Of a DNA stretch of 64,000 nt, positions 8,809 through 43,580 are shown in pieces. A program made the position numbers and the translations under genes. The notes beneath the pieces were generated by a model, which saw only the letters and a list, made by a program, of their open reading frames with translations, made no database searches and was not told where the DNA came from. The DNA lies in NCBI RefSeq assembly GCF_054482525.1, contig NZ_CM137006.1; one strand, 5' to 3'. Position 1 is the stretch's first letter, and the number at the start of each line of letters is the position of its first letter.

Positions 8809-10017
8809 ATGTTAAAAGTGGAAATGTTATCCACCGGGGATGAAGTGTTACACGGGCAAATCGTTGACACTAACGCTGCCTGGCTGGCCGATTTTTTCTT
8901 TCATCAGGGGTTGCCTTTAACTCGCCGCAATACGGTGGGGGATAACCTTGATGACTTAGTCACCATTCTTCGCGAACGTAGTCAGCACGCCGATGTGCTG
9001 ATCGTTAACGGCGGGCTGGGGCCGACCAGTGATGATTTAAGCGCACTCGCCGCTGCGACAGCAAAAGGTGAAGGCCTGGTGTTGCATGAAGCCTGGCTCA
9101 AAGAGATGGAACGCTATTTCCACGAACGTGGACGAGTAATGGCACCGAGCAACCGTAAACAAGCGGAGCTACCTGCCAGTGCTGAATTTATCAATAACCC
9201 GGTAGGCACCGCCTGTGGTTTTGCCGTGCAGCTTAATCGTTGCCTGATGTTCTTTACCCCCGGCGTACCGTCAGAATTTAAGGTGATGGTCGAGCACGAA
9301 ATCCTGCCGCGTCTGCGCGAGCGTTTTTCTTTACCACAGCCGCCGGTTTGTCTGCGTTTAACTACCTTTGGTCGTTCGGAAAGCGATCTGGCACAAAGCC
9401 TGGACACTCTACAACTGCCGCCGGGCGTAACAATGGGCTATCGCTCCTCAATGCCTATCATCGAACTGAAACTCACCGGACCGGCAAGCGAGCAACAGGC
9501 GATGGAAAAACTGTGGCTGGACGTTAAACGTGTTGCCGGACAGAGCGTGATTTTCGAAGGCACCGAAGGACTGCCCGCGCAGATCAGTCGCGAATTGCAA
9601 AACCGCCAGTTCAGCCTGACGTTGAGCGAGCAATTCACCAGCGGTTTATTGGCTTTGCAACTTTCTCGCGCAGGTGCTCCATTGCTGGCGTGTGAAGTGG
9701 TTCCTTCACAGGAAGAAACCCTGGCGCAAACTGCGCACTGGATTACAGAACGGCGGGCCAACCATTTTGCCGGGCTGGCACTGGCTGTTTCGGGTTTCGA
9801 GAACGAGCATCTCAACTTTGCGCTAGCCACGCCAGATGGCACTTTCGCTCTGCGTGTACGTTTCAGCACTACACGCTACAGCCTGGCTATCCGTCAGGAA
9901 GTGTGCGCAATGATGGCACTGAATATGCTGCGCCGTTGGTTAAACGGCCAGGACATTGCCAGTGAGCATGGCTGGATTGAGGTTGTTGAGTCCATGACCT
10001 TATCCAGTGCGCCGTAA
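8809..10017 (+). CDS. yfaY: CinA-like competence/damage-inducible protein YfaY
   Basis: 402-aa ORF beginning MLKVEMLSTGDEVLHGQIVDTNAAWLADFF...; stop is 3 nt before the IS left-end hairpin, so the last codons may be IS-derived. Confidence 0.85.
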   Translation: MLKVEMLSTGDEVLHGQIVDTNAAWLADFFFHQGLPLTRRNTVGDNLDDLVTILRERSQHADVLIVNGGLGPTSDDLSALAAATAKGEGLVLHEAWLKEMERYFHERGRVMAPSNRKQAELPASAEFINNPVGTACGFAVQLNRCLMFFTPGVPSEFKVMVEHEILPRLRERFSLPQPPVCLRLTTFGRSESDLAQSLDTLQLPPGVTMGYRSSMPIIELKLTGPASEQQAMEKLWLDVKRVAGQSVIFEGTEGLPAQISRELQNRQFSLTLSEQFTSGLLALQLSRAGAPLLACEVVPSQEETLAQTAHWITERRANHFAGLALAVSGFENEHLNFALATPDGTFALRVRFSTTRYSLAIRQEVCAMMALNMLRRWLNGQDIASEHGWIEVVESMTLSSAP

Positions 10018-10492
10018 AACCCCGTCCTTCAGGGCGGGGATATAAGGCGCGGTTTTCCACCTGACCAGGTGTTTGCTGTTGTTCAATGTATTGGCGGATG
10101 ACGGATATTGGCGCACCTCCGCAGCTACTGGCAAAATAGCCAGGACTCCACAAAACGCCTTTGTAGTAATACCTGACAGCAATATCTGGTCGATCTCGTC
10201 GCAGAAACCTATTCGATATGCCTTTGAGGCTGTTTACCAGACTGAATATCGCCAGTTTTGGAGGATAGTTAATTAACAAATGGACGTGATCTGGTTCGCC
10301 ATCCATTTCAATCAGTTCAGCTTCAAAATCAGCACATACATTTGAAAAGTAAGTGCGTAGTTTTTCTGTCGCGTCATGGTCAAAAATCTGGCGTCGGTAT
10401 TTGGTGACAAAGACCCGGTGAACATGCATCAGGAAAACACAATGCCTTCCACGCCGGATATCGGTTTCTTTTTTCACAGACCAAAGTATCAT
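9887..10492 (-). CDS. tnpA: IS200/IS605 Y1 (HUH) transposase TnpA, ORF extended past the element end
   Basis: Translation has the HUH motif (DHVHLLINYPPK) and catalytic-Tyr helix (VIRQYIEQQ); the ORF continues about 50 codons further, through the left-end hairpin and antisense to the yfaY 3' end. Confidence 0.75.
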   Translation of the reverse strand: MILWSVKKETDIRRGRHCVFLMHVHRVFVTKYRRQIFDHDATEKLRTYFSNVCADFEAELIEMDGEPDHVHLLINYPPKLAIFSLVNSLKGISNRFLRRDRPDIAVRYYYKGVLWSPGYFASSCGGAPISVIRQYIEQQQTPGQVENRALYPRPEGRGFTAHWIRSWTQQPQSSHAHWQCPGRLTNGAAYSVPSLRTLPDG

Positions 10493-11751
10493 TTGGCCTG
10501 TGAAACGACTACAGGCATTTAAATTCCAGTTAAGACCCGGTGGTCAACAGGAGCGTGAAATGAGGCGCTTCGCAGGCGCATGTCGTTTCGTTTTCAATCG
10601 TGCTCTGGCACGTCAGAATGAGAATCATGAGGCCGGTAATAAATACATCCCTTACGGGAAAATGGCTTCCTGGCTGGTTGAGTGGAAAAACGCCACTGAA
10701 ACGCAATGGCTTAAAGATGCCCCCTCACAGCCATTGCAACAGTCACTGAAAGACCTTGAGCGGGCTTACAAAAACTTCTTCCAGAATCGGGCTGCTTTTC
10801 CCCGATTCAAAAAGCGGGGACAGAATGATGCATTCCGCTACCCGCAGGGCGTTAAGCTCGATCAGGAAAACAGCCGTATTTTTCTGCCGAAACTTGGCTG
10901 GATGCGCTACCGGAACAGCCGTCAGGTCACGGGTGTTGTAAAAAATGTCACTGTCAGCCAGTCCTGCGGTAAGTGGTACATCAGTATTCAGACAGAAAGT
11001 GAAGTATCAACTCCGGATCACCCTTCAGCATCAATGGTCGGGCTGGATGCTGGCGTGGCTAAACTCGCCACGCTGTCAGATGGCACAGTCTTTGAGCCTG
11101 TAAACAGTTTTCAGAAAAACCAGAAGACGCTGGCGAGACTTCAGCGACAGTTAAGCCGCAAGGTCAAATTCAGCAACAACTGGCAGAAGCAGAAACGCAA
11201 AATACAGCGACTGCATTCCTGTATCGCAAATATCCGCAGGGACTACCTTCACAAAGTCACAACGACCGTCAGCAAAAACCACGCAATGATAGTCATTGAG
11301 GATTTGAAGGTCAGCAACATGTCAAAGTCAGCAGCGGGTACGGTCAGCCAGCCGGGGCGCAATGTCCGGGCAAAATCAGGTTTAAACCGTTCGATACTGG
11401 ATCAGGGCTGGTATGAAATGCGCCGCCAGCTTGAGTACAAGCAGCTCTGGCGTGGCGGTCAGGTGCTTGCTGTTCCGCCAGCGTACACAAGCCAGCGTTG
11501 CACGTGCTGTGGTCATACAGCGAAAGAAAATCGCCTGTCACAAAGTCAATTCAGATGCCAGGTATGTGGATATACAGCGAACGCCGATGTAAATGGCGCT
11601 CGTAACATTTTAGCGGCGGGGCACGCCGTTCTTGCCTGTGGAGGGATGGTGCAGTCAGGCCGCTCGTTGAAGCAGGAACCCACCGAAATGATTCAGGCGA
11701 CAGCCTGAACGTAGCAGGGATCCACGTTCTTCAGGGCGTGGAGGATGTCAA
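10001..11751 (+). mobile_element. IS200/IS605-family insertion sequence (divergent tnpA + tnpB); boundaries approximate (about +/-20 bp)
   Basis: Y1 transposase and TnpB ORFs bracketed by two similar subterminal hairpins on the same strand: ccccgtccttcagggcgggg (10020..10039) and ccacgttcttcagggcgtgg (11722..11741); rhmT homology resumes about 10 nt after the second hairpin. Confidence 0.8.
10500..11708 (+). CDS. tnpB: TnpB (IS605 OrfB family; RNA-guided RuvC-like endonuclease)
   Basis: 402-aa ORF with GTG start; RuvC-I (VGLDAGV), RuvC-II (IVIEDLKV), zinc finger CTCCGH...CQVCGY and RuvC-III (DVNGARNI) motifs all present. Confidence 0.85.
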
Positions 11752-11767
11752 GTTGGCGCTGTATGTG
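11560..11767 (+). ncRNA. Predicted TnpB-associated omega/reRNA (tnpB 3' end + right-end hairpin + about 16-nt flank-derived guide)
   Basis: Placed by analogy with characterised IS200/IS605 TnpB systems; the right-end hairpin is seen in sequence, the RNA extent is inferred. Confidence 0.3.
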
Positions 11768-12907
11768 CTGGCGTTTCTCGACCGTTCGAATATCGGTTTT
11801 GCCAAACAGACCTACCAGATTGATACCGGGCTGAGTAATGAAGCTTATGCGCTGGGAGCAGGCATTTTCTTTGTGGTATATGCGTTTCTGGGTGTTCCGG
11901 CGAATCTTTTGATGCGCAAACTGGGGGCAAGAACCTGGATTGGTACGACAACACTGCTGTGGGGATTTCTTTCGGCAGCCATGGCATGGGCCGATACTGA
12001 AGCGAAATTTCTGATCGTTCGCACTCTGCTTGGTGCTGCGGAGGCCGGGTTCTTCCCTGGTATGATTTATCTCACCTCGCAATGGTTTCCGCAGCGTAAT
12101 CGCGCCAGCATTATGGGGCTGTTCTATATGGGTGCACCGCTGGCGTTAACACTGGGATCACCGCTTTCCGGCGCGCTGCTGGAGATGCATGGATTTATGG
12201 GGCATCCCGGCTGGTTCTGGATGTTTGTGATTGAAGGATTGCTGGCAGTCGGCGCTGGGGTATTCACATTCTTTTGGCTTGATGACACACCGGAGCAGGC
12301 ACGTTTTCTGAGTAAACAAGAAAAAACGTTGCTTATCAATCAACTGGCAAGTGAAGAACAACAGAAAGTGACTTCTCGATTGAGCGATGCGCTGCGTAAT
12401 GGCCGAGTCTGGCAACTGGCGATTATCTACCTGACCATTCAGGTGGCGGTTTACGGATTAATTTTCTTCCTGCCGACCCAGGTTGCTGCATTGCTGGGGA
12501 CAAAAGTGGGCTTTACGGCGTCGGTGGTCACCGCCATTCCGTGGGTTGCGGTCTTGTTTGGGACCTGGCTTATTCCGCGCTATTCCGATAAAACCGGCGA
12601 ACGGCGTAATGTCGCAGCGCTGTGTGTTGCAGCCATCGGGTTTATTGCCGTGCAGCCGGTGTTCTGGACGATGCCGACACAACTTCTTTCCGGTACGGCG
12701 CTGGCTGCGGGGATTGGTTTTATAAACCTGTTTGGTGCAGTGGGCGGGTTTATTGCCCCGATCCTGCGCGTGAAAGCAGAAACGTTATTTTCCAGCGATG
12801 CGGCGGGATTACTGACGCTGGCAGCGGTGGCGGTCATCGGTTCACTGATTATTTTCACTCTGCGTGTAAATCACACTGTTGCGCAGACCGACGTGGCACA
12901 TCATTAA
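11752..12907 (+). pseudogene. rhmT: 5'-truncated L-rhamnonate MFS transporter rhmT (yfaV), missing about 40 N-terminal codons
   Basis: Translation from ...LALYVLAFLDRSNIGFAKQTYQIDTGL... matches RhmT from about residue 45 onward; sequence upstream is IS. An in-frame GTG inside the IS end (11738) could drive a fusion product. Confidence 0.75.
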
Positions 12908-12923
12908 TAGGTTAAGGAACACC

Positions 12924-13727
12924 ATGAACGCATTATTAACCAATCCCTTTAAAGAACGTTTACGCAAGGGCGAAGTGCAAATTGGTCTGTGGTTAAGCTC
13001 AACGACTGCCTATATGGCAGAAATTGCCGCTACTTCCGGTTATGATTGGTTGCTGATTGACGGGGAGCATGCGCCAAACACCATTCAGGATCTTTATCAC
13101 CAGCTACAGGCGGTAGCGCCCTATGCCAGCCAACCCGTGATCCGTCCGGTGGAAGGCAGTAAGCCGCTGATTAAACAAGTCCTGGATATTGGCGCACAAA
13201 CTCTACTGATCCCGATGGTCGATACTGCCGATCAGGCACGTCAGGTGGTGTCTGCCACGCGCTATCCTCCCTACGGTGAGCGTGGTGTTGGGGCCAGTGT
13301 GGCACGGGCTGCGCGCTGGGGACGCATTGAGAATTACATGGCGCAAGTCAACGATTCGCTTTGTCTGTTGGTGCAGGTGGAAAGTAAAACGGCACTGGAT
13401 AACCTGGACGAAATCCTCGACGTCGAAGGGATTGATGGCGTGTTTATTGGACCTGCGGATCTTTCTGCGTCGTTGGGCTACCCGGATAACGCCGGGCACC
13501 CGGAAGTGCAGCGAATTATTGAAACCAGTATTCGGCGGATCCGTGCTGCGGGTAAAGCGGCTGGTTTTCTGGCTGTGGCTCCTGATATGGCGCAGCAATG
13601 CCTGGCGTGGGGAGCGAACTTTGTCGCTGTTGGCGTTGACACGATGCTCTACAGCGATGCCCTGGATCAACGACTGGCGATGTTTAAATCAGGCAAAAAT
13701 GGGCCACGCATAAAAGGTAGTTATTGA
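12924..13727 (+). CDS. rhmA: 2-keto-3-deoxy-L-rhamnonate aldolase RhmA (YfaU)
   Basis: ATG at 12924 gives [26 protein letters not shown]..., 267 aa. Confidence 0.88.
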
Positions 13728-13767
13728 TATCAAAGGCCCATGGGGATCGGCTGTGGGCCTGTGTTAA

Positions 13768-13941
13768 TTAGTGGTTATTCGCTGCCAGATCGGCTTCGCT
13801 TAGCTGGGTGGCCGCGAGCACCAGGTCACGATCAATGCCCTGTTCCAGCATGCGCAAAGCAATTTTAATGGCTTGTTCATGCATGCCTTCCTGCCAGCCA
13901 ATTTGGTGTCCTTCCTGCCGTAGCCGTTCAGCAATAGTCAT
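13768..13941 (-). CDS. ypaA: YpaA: free-standing copy of the Rpn C-terminal small domain (57 aa)
   Basis: Hand-translated [57 protein letters not shown]; its 5' region, including the SD, is a near-identical duplicate of the rpnB 3' region. Below the 60-aa track cutoff. Confidence 0.7.
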   Translation of the reverse strand: MTIAERLRQEGHQIGWQEGMHEQAIKIALRMLEQGIDRDLVLAATQLSEADLAANNH

Positions 13942-13953
13942 TAATCTCTCCTT

Positions 13954-14913
13954 TTAATAACAGTTCGGAATATCAGCATCAGTGAGTTGGGTTGTCGCCA
14001 GCACAATCTCACGTTCAAAGCCCTGTTCCAGCATGCGCAAGGCAATTTTAATGGCTTGTTCATGCATACCTTCTACTTTGCCTTTCTGCAAACCCTCCAA
14101 CTTCCCCTCCTGCCAACCTTCAATCTTACCCTCCTGCCAGCCAATTTGATGTCCTTCCTGCCGCAGCCGTTCAGCAATAGTCATTAATCTCTCCTTTTGT
14201 AGTGGTGAACGTTCGGCAATCTCCTCAATAAAACGGGTGAAACGGGAGGTATCGCCGCATTGCAGCAGATAATTAAACAGCGTTTGTAGCTGGCTGTCAT
14301 TAGTGAAGCCTCTAACCAAAAGCGTGGTGATCCTGTCGACCATACCGATTAAATCGCGGTCGCGAATATGCTTTTGAATCAGTTCCAGCAGAGCTATACG
14401 CCGATGTTGCATGATCTCATCGTCAGGTACGATGGTGATATCCACCAACGGAAAAGCTTCGGTGTACAACTGCCGGGCAAGTTGCGGATCGTCAAACTCA
14501 TCCAGCCAGTTGAGTGAGTACGGGTAAGGCGAGGTTTCGCCATGATAAAACAGCAACGGCACCACCAGCGGGACTCTGTCATAGCCTTTGTCCAGGTGAC
14601 GCTGCATGGCGGCAGTGGCATAGCGCATTAGCCGAAAAGCCATATTCTTTTCTGCAGAGCTTTGATGTTCAATCACGCAGTAGATATAACCGTCACCGTC
14701 GCTGGTTTCCACGGACCACAAAACATCCGAGTAGTAAGCGCGTAAACTTTTTTCAATAAAACTGGTGGGTTCCAGGCGTAAGGTTTGCAGGTTGCAAAGC
14801 TTGCGCAGCGGCTCTGGTAGATGTATTTCCAGAAAATCCCGTGCGGTTTCGGGTGTGAACATAAAGGTTTTAAACACCGCATCATGCGGGGAGGAGGTTG
14901 TTGATTCGGTCAT
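13954..14913 (-). CDS. rpnB: Recombination-promoting nuclease RpnB (YfaD; PD-(D/E)XK / YhgA-like)
   Basis: 319-aa ORF beginning [36 protein letters not shown]... with C-terminal [17 protein letters not shown] repeats. Confidence 0.85.
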
Positions 14914-22102: not shown

Positions 22103-23173
22103 TTATTCGCATTTCGGAAAAGTAAAGAAAATATTAATGTATCTTATTAATTTATTATATTGTTCTTGAGTGAATGCTATTTGCACACCTTCAGGATAAT
22201 ATTCACCAGTAATAACCAGTTGTCCATTGCTGTGTTGTACCATTAAACCTTTTTTTTCCTTTGGATCTTCAAACTTAGAATTATCAAACGTGAAGATGTT
22301 ATTTTCCTGTTTTGAGTAAGCAAAGAAATCTCGTGTATAGCTGAAACTATCATTTATTAATGGTGCTAACTTTTTGTCGGCGATATCGATAAGCTCACCA
22401 CTTAATTTATTGATGTATTTCATTTGGTTCAATTTTTTCTGCGCTTGTACAATTTGCTTGTAGGTATTTTTAATTTCCTTAGAAGAATTCTTGAATTTAT
22501 CATAGCGTTCCACGGAGGATGCGTATTTGTACCATTCTGTATTTTTCTCAGAATGTAGTAGCAGGTCTGTATATTTTTTTTGATCGCTGTAAAGTTGACT
22601 TTTAATACTTTCCTCACTGCTGGTTTTATAAGGTTTATCAGAGCTGTTTATTTTTGAAATGTCTTTTTCTGTCGGTGACTGGACCGTGTTGTGGATATTT
22701 TCTTTTATAACATGTTCATTGATGATGTTAATTGCAGTTTCATATTCATTTAAGTTTATTGTTCTTTGTGAAATAAACCCTTCTTTGCTTTCGACACTCA
22801 AAATACCTTCGTTGTTTTCACCTCGGGTAAAGGTAAGGGTATAGGGTTCATAATCCGCTGCAAATTCATTTTTATACGTTATGACATGTTCGACAAAATG
22901 TCTTATTGGTACGAAACTATAACTGTGAACGTCAATTTTTTGGGTCTTGATACTATCAATTGCATCTGAGGCTTTCGTGAAAAAAGTCAATAAATTAGCT
23001 ATGCTGTCTGCTGAGGTTGATAACCCGTATCTACTTTGAGATATTTTTAGAAACTCATCGCAAAAAATCTCAAGTTTCGCGGTTTGTTGTGATTCTTTGT
23101 AAACTTCTGCTGGTTGCAATTTATTATTTTGTAAAATATTACCTCGAGATAAGTGAATAGATGTATTTGGCAT
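22103..23173 (-). CDS. Orphan hypothetical protein on AT-rich islet (about 356 aa, Lys/Asn/Glu/Tyr-rich, no signal peptide or TM segment evident)
   Basis: Long minus-strand ORF in a conspicuously AT-rich block between glpQ and yfaH; start placed at the ATG (MPNTSIHLSRG...) preceded by AAGGA; the track's longer ORF begins at a TTG 12 codons upstream. Confidence 0.6.
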   Translation of the reverse strand: MPNTSIHLSRGNILQNNKLQPAEVYKESQQTAKLEIFCDEFLKISQSRYGLSTSADSIANLLTFFTKASDAIDSIKTQKIDVHSYSFVPIRHFVEHVITYKNEFAADYEPYTLTFTRGENNEGILSVESKEGFISQRTINLNEYETAINIINEHVIKENIHNTVQSPTEKDISKINSSDKPYKTSSEESIKSQLYSDQKKYTDLLLHSEKNTEWYKYASSVERYDKFKNSSKEIKNTYKQIVQAQKKLNQMKYINKLSGELIDIADKKLAPLINDSFSYTRDFFAYSKQENNIFTFDNSKFEDPKEKKGLMVQHSNGQLVITGEYYPEGVQIAFTQEQYNKLIRYINIFFTFPKCE

Positions 23174-23638: not shown

Positions 23639-23845
23639 TCAAATTTTTCCACTCACCACGAGTTGTTCCGTACACGTTTGTAGTAAAAACAGTGGACTGC
23701 CTTCTACCGGCTTTTCTTTAGCCAGCAACGAAATCTGTCGATAGAAGGTTGGTTCGAGAGGAACGGAACACAATTCACCTGCAATGGTTTTCAGCGTCAA
23801 CTCTGGTAATAAGGCGATGCCTAATCCCTGTCGAATAAAATTCAT
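23639..23845 (-). pseudogene. yfaH: yfaH: C-terminal remnant of a LysR-family regulator
   Basis: 68-aa ORF MNFIRQGLGIALLPELTLKTIAGELCSVPLEPTFYRQISLLAKEKP... resembles only the C-terminal end of a LysR substrate-binding domain. Confidence 0.55.
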
Positions 23846-24060
23846 CGCTGTATCCGCCTGATTAAATTCACATTTTATCTGCTGGGTGCACTATTAGTGG
23901 TAGTGGCTGGTGGAGTCTATGCGCTGCAAATGAAGGGTAAAAGCGGTGTCGCGCTAGTAGTGGCAAAAGAAATTCATTAATACGACACGTTTCATTAAGA
24001 TTTTTCGCAGGTAACCACCTATAGTCATTGTCGTAAATAAAAAATGACAGGCGATAGGGT

Positions 24061-33956: not shown

Positions 33957-36584
33957 ATGAGCGACCTTGCGAGAGAAATTACACCGGTCAACATTGAGGA
34001 AGAGCTGAAGAGCTCCTATCTGGATTATGCGATGTCGGTCATTGTTGGCCGTGCGCTGCCAGATGTCCGAGATGGCCTGAAGCCGGTACACCGTCGCGTA
34101 CTTTACGCCATGAACGTACTAGGCAATGACTGGAACAAAGCCTATAAAAAATCTGCCCGTGTCGTTGGTGACGTAATCGGTAAATACCATCCCCATGGTG
34201 ACTTGGCGGTTTATGACACGATCGTCCGTATGGCGCAGCCATTCTCGCTGCGTTACATGCTGGTAGACGGTCAGGGTAACTTCGGTTCCATCGACGGCGA
34301 CTCTGCGGCGGCAATGCGTTATACGGAAATCCGTCTGGCGAAAATTGCCCATGAACTGATGGCCGATCTCGAAAAAGAGACGGTCGATTTCGTTGATAAC
34401 TATGACGGCACGGAAAAAATTCCCGACGTCATGCCAACCAAAATTCCTAACCTGCTGGTGAACGGTTCTTCCGGTATCGCCGTAGGTATGGCAACCAACA
34501 TCCCGCCGCACAACCTGACGGAAGTCATCAACGGTTGTCTGGCGTATATCGATGATGAAGACATCAGCATTGAAGGGCTGATGGAACACATCCCGGGGCC
34601 GGACTTCCCGACGGCGGCAATCATTAATGGTCGTCGCGGTATTGAAGAAGCTTACCGTACCGGTCGCGGCAAGGTATATATCCGCGCCCGTGCTGAAGTG
34701 GAAGTTGACGCCAAAACCGGACGTGAAACCATTATCGTCCATGAAATTCCGTATCAGGTGAACAAAGCGCGCCTGATCGAGAAGATTGCGGAACTGGTAA
34801 AAGAAAAACGCGTGGAAGGCATCAGCGCGCTGCGTGACGAGTCTGACAAAGACGGTATGCGCATCGTGATTGAAGTGAAACGCGATGCGGTTGGTGAAGT
34901 TGTGCTTAACAACCTCTACTCCCAGACCCAGTTGCAGGTTTCTTTCGGTATCAACATGGTGGCATTGCACCATGGTCAGCCGAAGATCATGAACCTGAAA
35001 GACATCATCGCGGCGTTTGTTCGTCACCGCCGTGAAGTGGTGACCCGTCGTACTATTTTCGAACTGCGTAAAGCTCGCGATCGTGCTCATATCCTTGAAG
35101 CATTAGCCGTGGCGCTGGCGAACATCGACCCGATCATCGAACTGATCCGTCATGCGCCGACGCCTGCAGAAGCGAAAACTGCGCTGGTTGCTAATCCGTG
35201 GCAGCTGGGCAACGTTGCCGCCATGCTCGAACGTGCGGGCGATGATGCTGCGCGTCCGGAATGGCTGGAGCCAGAGTTCGGCGTGCGTGATGGTCTGTAC
35301 TACCTGACCGAACAGCAAGCTCAGGCGATTCTGGATCTGCGTTTGCAGAAACTGACCGGCCTTGAGCACGAAAAACTGCTCGACGAATACAAAGAGCTGC
35401 TGGATCAGATCGCAGAACTGCTGCGTATTCTTGGCAGTGCCGATCGTCTGATGGAAGTGATCCGCGAAGAGCTGGAGCTGGTTCGTGAACAGTTCGGCGA
35501 CAAACGTCGTACTGAAATCACTGCCAACAGCGCCGACATCAACCTGGAAGATCTGATCACCCAGGAAGATGTGGTCGTGACGCTCTCTCACCAGGGCTAC
35601 GTTAAATATCAGCCGCTTTCTGAATACGAAGCGCAGCGTCGTGGCGGGAAAGGTAAATCTGCCGCACGTATTAAAGAAGAAGACTTTATTGACCGACTGC
35701 TGGTGGCGAACACCCACGACCATATTCTGTGCTTCTCCAGCCGTGGTCGCGTCTATTCGATGAAAGTCTATCAGTTGCCGGAAGCCACTCGTGGCGCGCG
35801 TGGTCGTCCGATCGTCAACCTGCTGCCGCTGGAGCAGGACGAACGTATCACTGCGATCCTGCCGGTGACCGAGTTTGAAGAAGGCGTGAAAGTCTTCATG
35901 GCGACCGCTAACGGTACTGTGAAGAAAACCGTCCTCACCGAATTCAACCGTCTGCGTACCGCCGGTAAAGTGGCGATCAAACTGGTTGAAGGCGATGAGC
36001 TGATCGGCGTTGACCTGACCAGCGGCGAAGACGAAGTAATGCTGTTCTCCGCCGAAGGTAAAGTGGTGCGCTTTAAAGAGTCTTCTGTCCGTGCGATGGG
36101 CTGCAACACCACCGGTGTTCGCGGTATTCGTTTAGGCGAAGGCGATAAAGTCGTCTCTCTGATCGTGCCTCGTGGCGATGGCGCAATCCTCACCGCAACG
36201 CAGAACGGTTATGGTAAACGTACCGCAGTGGCGGAATACCCGACTAAGTCGCGTGCGACGAAAGGGGTTATCTCCATCAAGGTTACCGAACGTAACGGTT
36301 TAGTGGTTGGCGCGGTGCAGGTAGATGACTGCGATCAGATCATGATGATCACCGATGCCGGTACGCTGGTACGTACTCGCGTTTCGGAAATCAGCATCGT
36401 GGGCCGTAACACCCAGGGCGTGATCCTCATCCGTACTGCGGAAGATGAAAACGTAGTGGGTCTGCAACGTGTTGCTGAACCGGTTGACGAGGAAGATCTG
36501 GATACTATCGACGGCAGTGCCGCGGAAGGGGACGATGAAATCGCTCCGGAAGTGGACGTTGACGACGAGCCAGAAGAAGAATAA
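33957..36584 (+). CDS. gyrA: DNA gyrase subunit A, Ser83Leu variant
   Basis: 875-aa ORF beginning [47 protein letters not shown]; residues 81-87 read GDLAVYD (codon 83 = TTG at 34203..34205). Confidence 0.95.

Positions 36585-36732: not shown

Positions 36733-43580
<6,848 letters not shown>

Follow-up and report, generated by a model that had tools for sequence, protein, structure and literature searches.

An intact rhmA aldolase gene beside an IS609-associated deletion of rhmR and rhmD in Escherichia coli

Organization of the Locus

The DNA analysed here (the window) is a 64-kb stretch of an Escherichia coli chromosome, along which the genes run in the order arnT–arnB, ais, nudI, yfaZ, yfaY, an insertion sequence (IS), a gene for an MFS transporter, yfaU (rhmA), ypaA/rpnE and glpCBA–glpTQ, and on to gyrA and rcsCBD. 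The features between yfaY and ypaA/rpnE are the following.

8809–10017, plus strand: yfaY (CinA family), last codons rewritten by the left end of IS609
10004–11751, plus strand: complete IS609 (IS200/IS605 family), 1,748 bp, from end-to-end alignment to IS609 at unrelated loci
10020–10039, plus strand: left-end subterminal hairpin of IS609, CCCCGTCC-TTCA-GGGCGGGG, read from the sequence
10067–10492, minus strand: tnpA (Y1 HUH transposase), called a pseudogene by PGAP
10500–11708, plus strand: tnpB (RNA-guided endonuclease family, 402 aa), intact and co-oriented with rhmT'–rhmA
11722–11751, plus strand: right-end hairpin of IS609, CCACGTTC-TTCA-GGGCGTGG (11722–11741), and the terminus ...GGATGTCAA
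11752–12907, plus strand: rhmT' (yfaV), with homology to K-12 from the last base of codon 21
12605–12626, plus strand: scar of an in-frame 72-bp deletion in rhmT (join at 12615/12616), between imperfect GC(G/A)GCGCTG repeats
12914–12918, plus strand: native Shine–Dalgarno sequence of rhmA, AAGGA, 5 nt before the ATG
12924–13727, plus strand: rhmA (yfaU), 267 codons and a stop
13734–13760, plus strand: terminator-like GC-rich hairpin, native to the locus, directly 3' of the rhmA stop

The K-12 rhmRDTA operon (yfaX–rhmD–yfaV–yfaU) is located at this very site of the chromosome, flanked by yfaY and ypaA/rpnE. Relative to K-12, the window has lost about 2.35 kb, and the complete 1,748-bp IS609 stands in its place. 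The lost segment comprises the last yfaY codons, the yfaY–rhmR spacer, rhmR, rhmD, the rhmD–rhmT spacer and codons 1–21 of rhmT. The rhmA DNA is 98.6% identical to that of K-12, and the body of rhmT, the rhmT–rhmA spacer and the downstream hairpin are conserved; by contrast, the promoter region, rhmR, rhmD and the first 21 codons of rhmT have given way to IS609, and rhmT is also without residues 310–333. What the window lacks of a functional rhmRDTA operon, then, is RhmD, RhmR with the upstream promoter region, and an intact RhmT with 12 transmembrane (TM) segments.

The initial annotation had described an intact rhmA downstream of an IS and of an N-terminally truncated rhmT, with rhmD and rhmR missing from the locus, and comparison with the K-12 proteins bears out this picture in each respect. 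RhmD and RhmR gave no tblastn match in the 64-kb window (E ≤ 1e-3), RhmT aligned only from residue 22 (window position 11753 onward), and RhmA aligned at full length, with 99.25% identity over residues 1–267; the IS is a complete IS609 lying between yfaY and rhmT'.

At the left junction, the C-terminus of yfaY is rewritten at 10004–10017 (...MTLSV and a stop in K-12, ...MTLSSAP and a stop in the window), and PGAP still calls the gene intact. On the other side of rhmA, rpnE (319 aa; region 13768–14913, minus strand) precedes a ypaA-like fragment (13768–13953) in which its C-terminal coding part is duplicated.

The Aldolase Gene

The product of rhmA is identical to K-12 RhmA at 265 of 267 residues, the sole differences being S6T and E103D. 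The NCBIfam equivalog model NF007521 covered residues 1–267 of 267 with a score of 595.5 bits, the cut-off being 441. The HpaI/HpcH and GarL class II aldolases are paralogues of RhmA and share with the window protein the Pfam family HpcH_HpaI; however, the latter scored below the cut-offs for both HpaI (357.6 vs 368.8) and GarL (259.9 vs 406.75), passing only that of the RhmA equivalog.

The window protein could also be aligned end to end (1–267 to 1–267) with the crystallised YfaU (PDB 2VWS), again with 265/267 identical residues, and the next-best structure matches were to the solved HpaI/HpcH and 2-dehydro-3-deoxygalactarate (DDG) aldolase. His49, Arg74, Asp88, Glu153 and Asp179, which we take to be the active-site residues of YfaU, are the same in the two proteins. 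Judging from the sequence, the window rhmA is almost certainly an intact class II pyruvate aldolase gene with a catalytically competent product. YfaU is known to accept many electrophiles and several keto-acid substrates, including the combination of formaldehyde with pyruvate (PMC8461973, PMC11259041).

IS609 and the Deletion Junctions

Over positions 3–1747, the window IS609 is 97.4–98.3% identical to copies found elsewhere, in thousands of genomes. The copies used for comparison lie between ydcL and ydcO in K-12 and between yjfZ and ytfB in O157, where a TetR-family gene is split, and the O157 copy is annotated as IS609. A TTAT left flank was present at all three IS609 copies compared, with no direct repeats at the ends, and the window element ends in GTCAA. 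Its genes matched the Pfam families Y1_Tnp, OrfB_IS605, Cas12f1-like_TNB and HTH_OrfB_IS605, and the NCBIfam models NF033573 and NF040570. The tnpB product carries the RuvC-like motifs GLDAG (181), IEDL (266) and NADVNGA (361), together with two CxxC pairs (zinc-finger motifs). The tnpA gene has lost its stop, and its open frame extends for 58 codons through the left end and into the 3' end of yfaY, to 9887 (minus strand). The same stop is lost in the IS609 copy of the strain 042 haplotype described below, and tnpB is intact in both copies.

IS609 resembles IS608 and ISDra2, which likewise belong to the IS200/IS605 family, in having a Y1 TnpA, a TnpB, subterminal hairpins, no inverted repeats, insertion 3' of the target and a TCAA end. 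Unlike in a simple IS200/IS605 insertion, however, the right flank in the window is not what followed the left-flank target, so that the event was an insertion plus a deletion. The K-12 breakpoints are CCTTAT|C in yfaY and GTTTAT|GTTGGCG in rhmT (where TTAT corresponds to codons 20–21), that is, each deletion endpoint directly follows a TTAT, on one and the same strand. For this reason both junctions resemble genuine IS609 transposition junctions; among IS elements that carry TnpB, the commonest cleavage motifs are TTAT on the left and TCAA on the right (PMC9956272).

The simplest and conventional route to such an arrangement would be two insertions of IS609 in the same orientation, followed by recombination between the copies. 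Alternatively, a single aberrant transposition might have joined two cleaved TTAT sites. A search of 5,426 genomes for intermediates (two flanking IS copies, or a single insertion with the operon intact), in which IS609 was sought at just one of the two TTAT sites, gave no full junction match and also picked up unrelated IS609 left ends with a TTTAT flank; the route of the deletion is consequently a matter of inference.

Some additional observations concern the element itself. Two sub-threshold Rfam matches, RAGATH-18 (26.5 bits, E = 0.07) and HgcC (19.1 bits, E = 0.29), fall at 11635–11764 on the plus strand, i.e., across the 3' end of tnpB and the IS right end, the expected position of a TnpB guide-RNA scaffold. 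The TnpB guide would consist of the 20 nucleotides just 3' of the right end (11752–11771), GTTGGCGCTGTATGTGCTGG, which in wild-type rhmT lie in codons 19–27 (K-12) and have TTAT before them. An intact rhmT allele would accordingly be a perfect predicted TnpB target, as is expected for any IS200/IS605 insertion. In the window's sublineage there is a second IS609 copy, located in a TetR/AcrR-family gene (NZ_CP006632.1, ~4731459; NZ_CP051753.1, ~367627) and sharing with the rhm-locus copy the left-end variant CCAGTG.

The Transporter Remnant

According to hydropathy, TM1 of RhmT spans approximately residues 17–35, and the first of these residues were lost to the right end of IS609. PGAP annotates rhmT' as a 400-aa open reading frame from a CTG at 11705, overlapping the tnpB stop. 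A GTG at 11738, within the IS609 right end, or a TTG at 11753 seems a more plausible start from the sequence context: a GGAGG (11740–11744), also in the right end, lies 8 nt before the TTG and is a possible Shine–Dalgarno sequence for rhmT'.

A second and more damaging lesion, absent from the initial annotation, is the in-frame 72-bp deletion, which takes out K-12 residues 310–333, corresponding by hydropathy to about one helix of the TM9–TM10 hairpin. Its scar occurs in only three of the 5,426 complete genomes (PCN033, SCU-102 and 19KM1776) and is a marker of a rare sublineage. In a 12-TM MFS protein that is one helix short, all that comes after the missing helix should be inverted, and we infer that the window rhmT' is non-functional.

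Distribution of the Junction and of rhmD and rhmR

A 54-nt probe for the IS609–rhmT junction matched 189 of 5,426 complete E. coli genomes (~3.5%), with 100% identity and once in each; these include strain 042 and the three complete genomes that are almost identical to the window. The K-12 rhmD and rhmR DNA (2,003 bp) matched 3,980 genomes in 4,049 places, and a chimeric query consisting of the junction plus rhmD and rhmR matched 4,169 genomes in 4,238 places, which is 3,980 + 189 and 4,049 + 189, respectively. The additivity of the genome counts implies that the genomes with the junction and those with rhmD/rhmR form disjoint sets. By the terms of the initial annotation, finding rhmD and rhmR elsewhere in the genome would have refuted its reading of rhmA, but none of the 189 junction genomes carries detectable rhmD or rhmR, on chromosome or plasmids, in this megablast search, which picks up close homologues only and which a divergent dehydratase would escape. 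Rather than an accident of one strain, the IS609–rhmT arrangement is an allele fixed throughout a lineage.

Across the whole set of genomes, the rhm locus was found in the following states.

Full rhmD and rhmR: 3,825 of 5,426 genomes (70%)
No rhmD/rhmR DNA: 1,446 of 5,426 genomes (27%)
Partial rhmD/rhmR match only: 155 of 5,426 genomes
Full-length rhmA: 4,169 of 5,426 genomes
rhmA nucleotides 343–804 only: 1,241 of 5,426 genomes (23%)

The number of genomes with full-length rhmA equals that of the rhmDR-bearing plus the junction genomes. The truncated rhmA of the 1,241 genomes results from a 3.9-kb deletion that starts just after yfaY. Two of the 155 genomes with partial matches were examined and showed a third deletion, reaching from the middle of rhmR to about nucleotide 163 of rhmT, by which rhmD is lost and rhmA left intact; in one of the two, ISEc46 (tnpA + tnpB) lies in the rhmR remnant, with tnpB co-oriented with rhmA. 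These decay alleles, at least three besides that with IS609 when the one with ISEc46 is counted separately, are represented by NZ_CP035832.1, NZ_CM137004.1 and NZ_CP145630.1. In E. coli, rhmD has thus been lost through at least three independent deletions; loss of the pathway is recurrent, and much of the species can do without rhmA.

Haplotypes Carrying the Junction

Thirteen junction genomes that we sampled, from human, poultry, swine, sheep, cattle and civet, represent one haplotype, hereafter the 042 type after strain 042, a member of group D (PMC2808357). Within it, the RhmA and TnpB proteins are identical in 13/13 genomes and RhmT' in 12/13, with 3–4 SNPs in 5.25 kb; at one locus, 1 bp is deleted from the IS right end and RhmT' is called differently. 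Compared with the 042 type, the IS609 of the window type differs at 32 of 1,748 sites, and the two have 10 derived sites in common when the K-12 and O157 copies serve as reference. The junctions of the two types are identical. Taken together, these comparisons indicate a single, old deletion event, with later divergence of the window and 042 types.

The window itself differs from PCN033 by 5 SNPs per 50 kb, and from 19KM1776 by the same number. PCN033 carries a private non-synonymous change in RhmA, R12C (window position 12957). Decay is ongoing in the window's sublineage, as witnessed by this substitution and by the 72-bp rhmT deletion.

Other observations concern sequences outside the rhm genes. 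Codons 83–87 of gyrA (34203–34217) encode S83L with wild-type D87 in the window, S83/D87 in 19KM1776 and S83L/D87N in PCN033, forming a stepwise series at positions associated with quinolone resistance. In the near-identical 19KM1776 and PCN033, PGAP calls pseudogenes at window positions ~22103–23173, 23639–23980 and 39065–43580, namely a frameshifted hypothetical gene, LysR-type fragments beside inaA, and a frameshifted alpha-2-macroglobulin family gene between yfaT and yfaQ. The rpnE region shows a 24-bp indel and 96.3% identity to the 042 type, the identity of most neighbouring segments being 97.1–99.7%.

Possible Sources of rhmA Transcription

The K-12 transcription unit is yfaX–rhmD–yfaVU, and its upstream region is the yfaY–yfaX spacer (PMC8743547). 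This spacer, the native promoter region of the operon, is deleted in the window. There, tnpB is the sole upstream gene in the same orientation, and its stop precedes the candidate rhmT' starts at 11738 and 11753 by 30–45 nt. In ISDra2, the TnpB guide RNA spans the tnpB 3' end and the right end and proceeds ~16 nt into the flank (PMC8612924), so that transcription across the IS609–rhmT junction would be expected if IS609 behaves alike. There is no T-run after the IS609 right-end hairpin.

A scan of the plus strand from 9800 to 14000 found no consensus sigma-70 promoter, and with relaxed settings it returned weak candidates only, e.g., a TG-n-TATGAT ending at 12066. The RNA-seq and TraDIS supplements for PCN033 contained nothing on yfaU expression or fitness. 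Any transcription of rhmA would need to originate within IS609, through read-through of the tnpB mRNA or guide RNA, or else at weak internal sites, the gene having kept its own ribosome-binding site. Expression by tnpB read-through is, on these grounds, plausible.

Selection on rhmA

When the two IS-bearing haplotypes are compared, 13 synonymous and 2 non-synonymous differences are found in rhmA (omega ~0.05), and 8 and 12, respectively, in tnpB (omega ~0.42). The damaged rhmT' has an omega of 0.05, the same as rhmA, a value that fits with a legacy signal. Synonymous divergence between these haplotypes is 0.11 for yfaY and 0.07 for rhmA, exceeding the 0.03 of the IS. The window rhmA has 11 differences from K-12, 7 from the intact-operon strain R13 and 15 from the 042-type allele; its private changes are three, all synonymous. 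Only 3 differences, in turn, separate the 042-type rhmA from the rhmA of a genome carrying another deletion allele (allele d). From the divergence of the flanks relative to the IS, and from the distances among rhmA alleles, much of the rhmA divergence appears to be older than the deletion or imported by recombination.

Low dN/dS was considered as proof that rhmA has been retained by selection, and we rejected it as such, because the flanks are more divergent than the IS and the window rhmA is nearer to intact-operon alleles; the sharing of the 042-type rhmA haplotype with a different deletion allele was a further ground. Diversity within the 042 haplotype (3–4 SNPs in 5.25 kb among 13 genomes) gives no power for a selection test. 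The gene was intact at 16/16 junction-bearing loci examined.

Interpretation

We consider it likely that rhmA in the window is an intact leftover of an old, IS609-associated deletion that removed the promoter region, rhmR, rhmD and the 5' end of rhmT, leaving the rhamnonate route dead. With RhmD and RhmR gone and RhmT damaged, the window strain would have no dehydratase to make the aldolase substrate, no regulator, and a transporter short of part of TM1 and of a further helix; for these reasons its L-rhamnonate route would not operate. The persistence of rhmA would then mean that nothing has hit the gene so far, and a need for rhmA would not be demonstrated by its survival. The initial annotation had regarded the gene as either a remnant or co-opted for another function, and the evidence leans toward the former, given the repeated loss of the pathway and the dispensability of rhmA in the species.

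Under co-option, selection would keep RhmA as a promiscuous pyruvate aldolase working on its own, with other 2-keto-3-deoxy acids, 4-hydroxy-2-keto acids or small aldehydes as substrates; its expression from IS609 would be constitutive, the regulator having been lost. The substrate promiscuity of YfaU (PMC8461973, PMC11259041) is consistent with such a role, as are the tnpB gene abutting rhmT' in the same orientation, the open reading frame that is intact in every junction genome sampled, the independent rhmD deletion (alleles c and d) that likewise spares rhmA, and an omega of ~0.05 which, at face value, means purifying selection. Nevertheless, this low omega is uninformative for the period after the loss, synonymous divergence being higher in rhmA (0.07) and yfaY (0.11) than in the IS (0.03), and the window rhmA is nearer to K-12 (11 differences) and to the intact-operon strain (7) than to the 042-type allele (15). 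Variation within the 042 haplotype is too scarce to have any power, rhmA is destroyed in ~23% of E. coli genomes, and the paralogous families HpaI and GarL exist. We therefore regard co-option as rather unlikely. A more elaborate version, which we deem very unlikely, has IS609 rewiring the remnant: read-through from tnpB or the guide RNA would express rhmT'–rhmA constitutively, RhmA would be maintained as a promiscuous aldolase in lineages of the phylogroup D type, and TnpB would cut incoming rhmT. The predicted TnpB guide is made up of the first 16–20 nt past the right end (GTTGGCGCTGTATGTG...) which, with the preceding TTAT, matches wild-type rhmT exactly.

It is very unlikely that the pathway still works, with another dehydratase and another transporter supplying RhmA with 2-keto-3-deoxy-L-rhamnonate or with the lyxonate or mannonate analogues. 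Other acid-sugar dehydratases exist in E. coli, and a divergent paralogue from the enolase superfamily would escape megablast; however, we know of no alternative dehydratase that feeds RhmA, rhmD- or rhmR-like DNA was found in 0/189 junction genomes, RhmD and RhmR had no tblastn match in the window, and the dedicated transporter RhmT is damaged. As for an assembly or annotation artefact, in which the IS609 junctions would be a mis-join, its chances are practically negligible: 189 complete genomes, each assembled independently, have the same 54-nt junction, and both junctions lie at canonical TTAT sites.

The reading of rhmA as a leftover involves known components only. RhmA/YfaU, the ACS-type MFS transporter and IS609 with its TnpA and TnpB all belong to known families, and an IS-associated deletion that leaves an orphan gene behind is a known process, an ordinary case of operon decay and not a new system. 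As in IS-mediated deletion and pathway decay in enterobacterial lineages generally, the deletion is bordered exactly by a mobile element, a lineage is fixed for the allele and what is left of the operon erodes further; unlike in those cases, no intermediate was seen among the 5,426 genomes. Our literature search found no paper on this IS609–rhmT allele, although its annotation is public for 189 complete genomes, among them that of the reference strain 042 of 2010.

These results describe L-rhamnonate catabolism as a variable and repeatedly lost trait of E. coli, with intact rhmRDTA in ~70% of complete genomes. The locus also illustrates cleanly, in a natural setting, how an IS200/IS605 element can border a deletion with TTAT sites at both of its junctions. 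Should transcription prove to run from tnpB into rhmA, the locus would further serve as a modest example of an orphan gene expressed through an IS; and if IS609 has rewired the remnant, an active TnpB would cut incoming intact rhmT alleles, hindering restoration of the operon by recombination.
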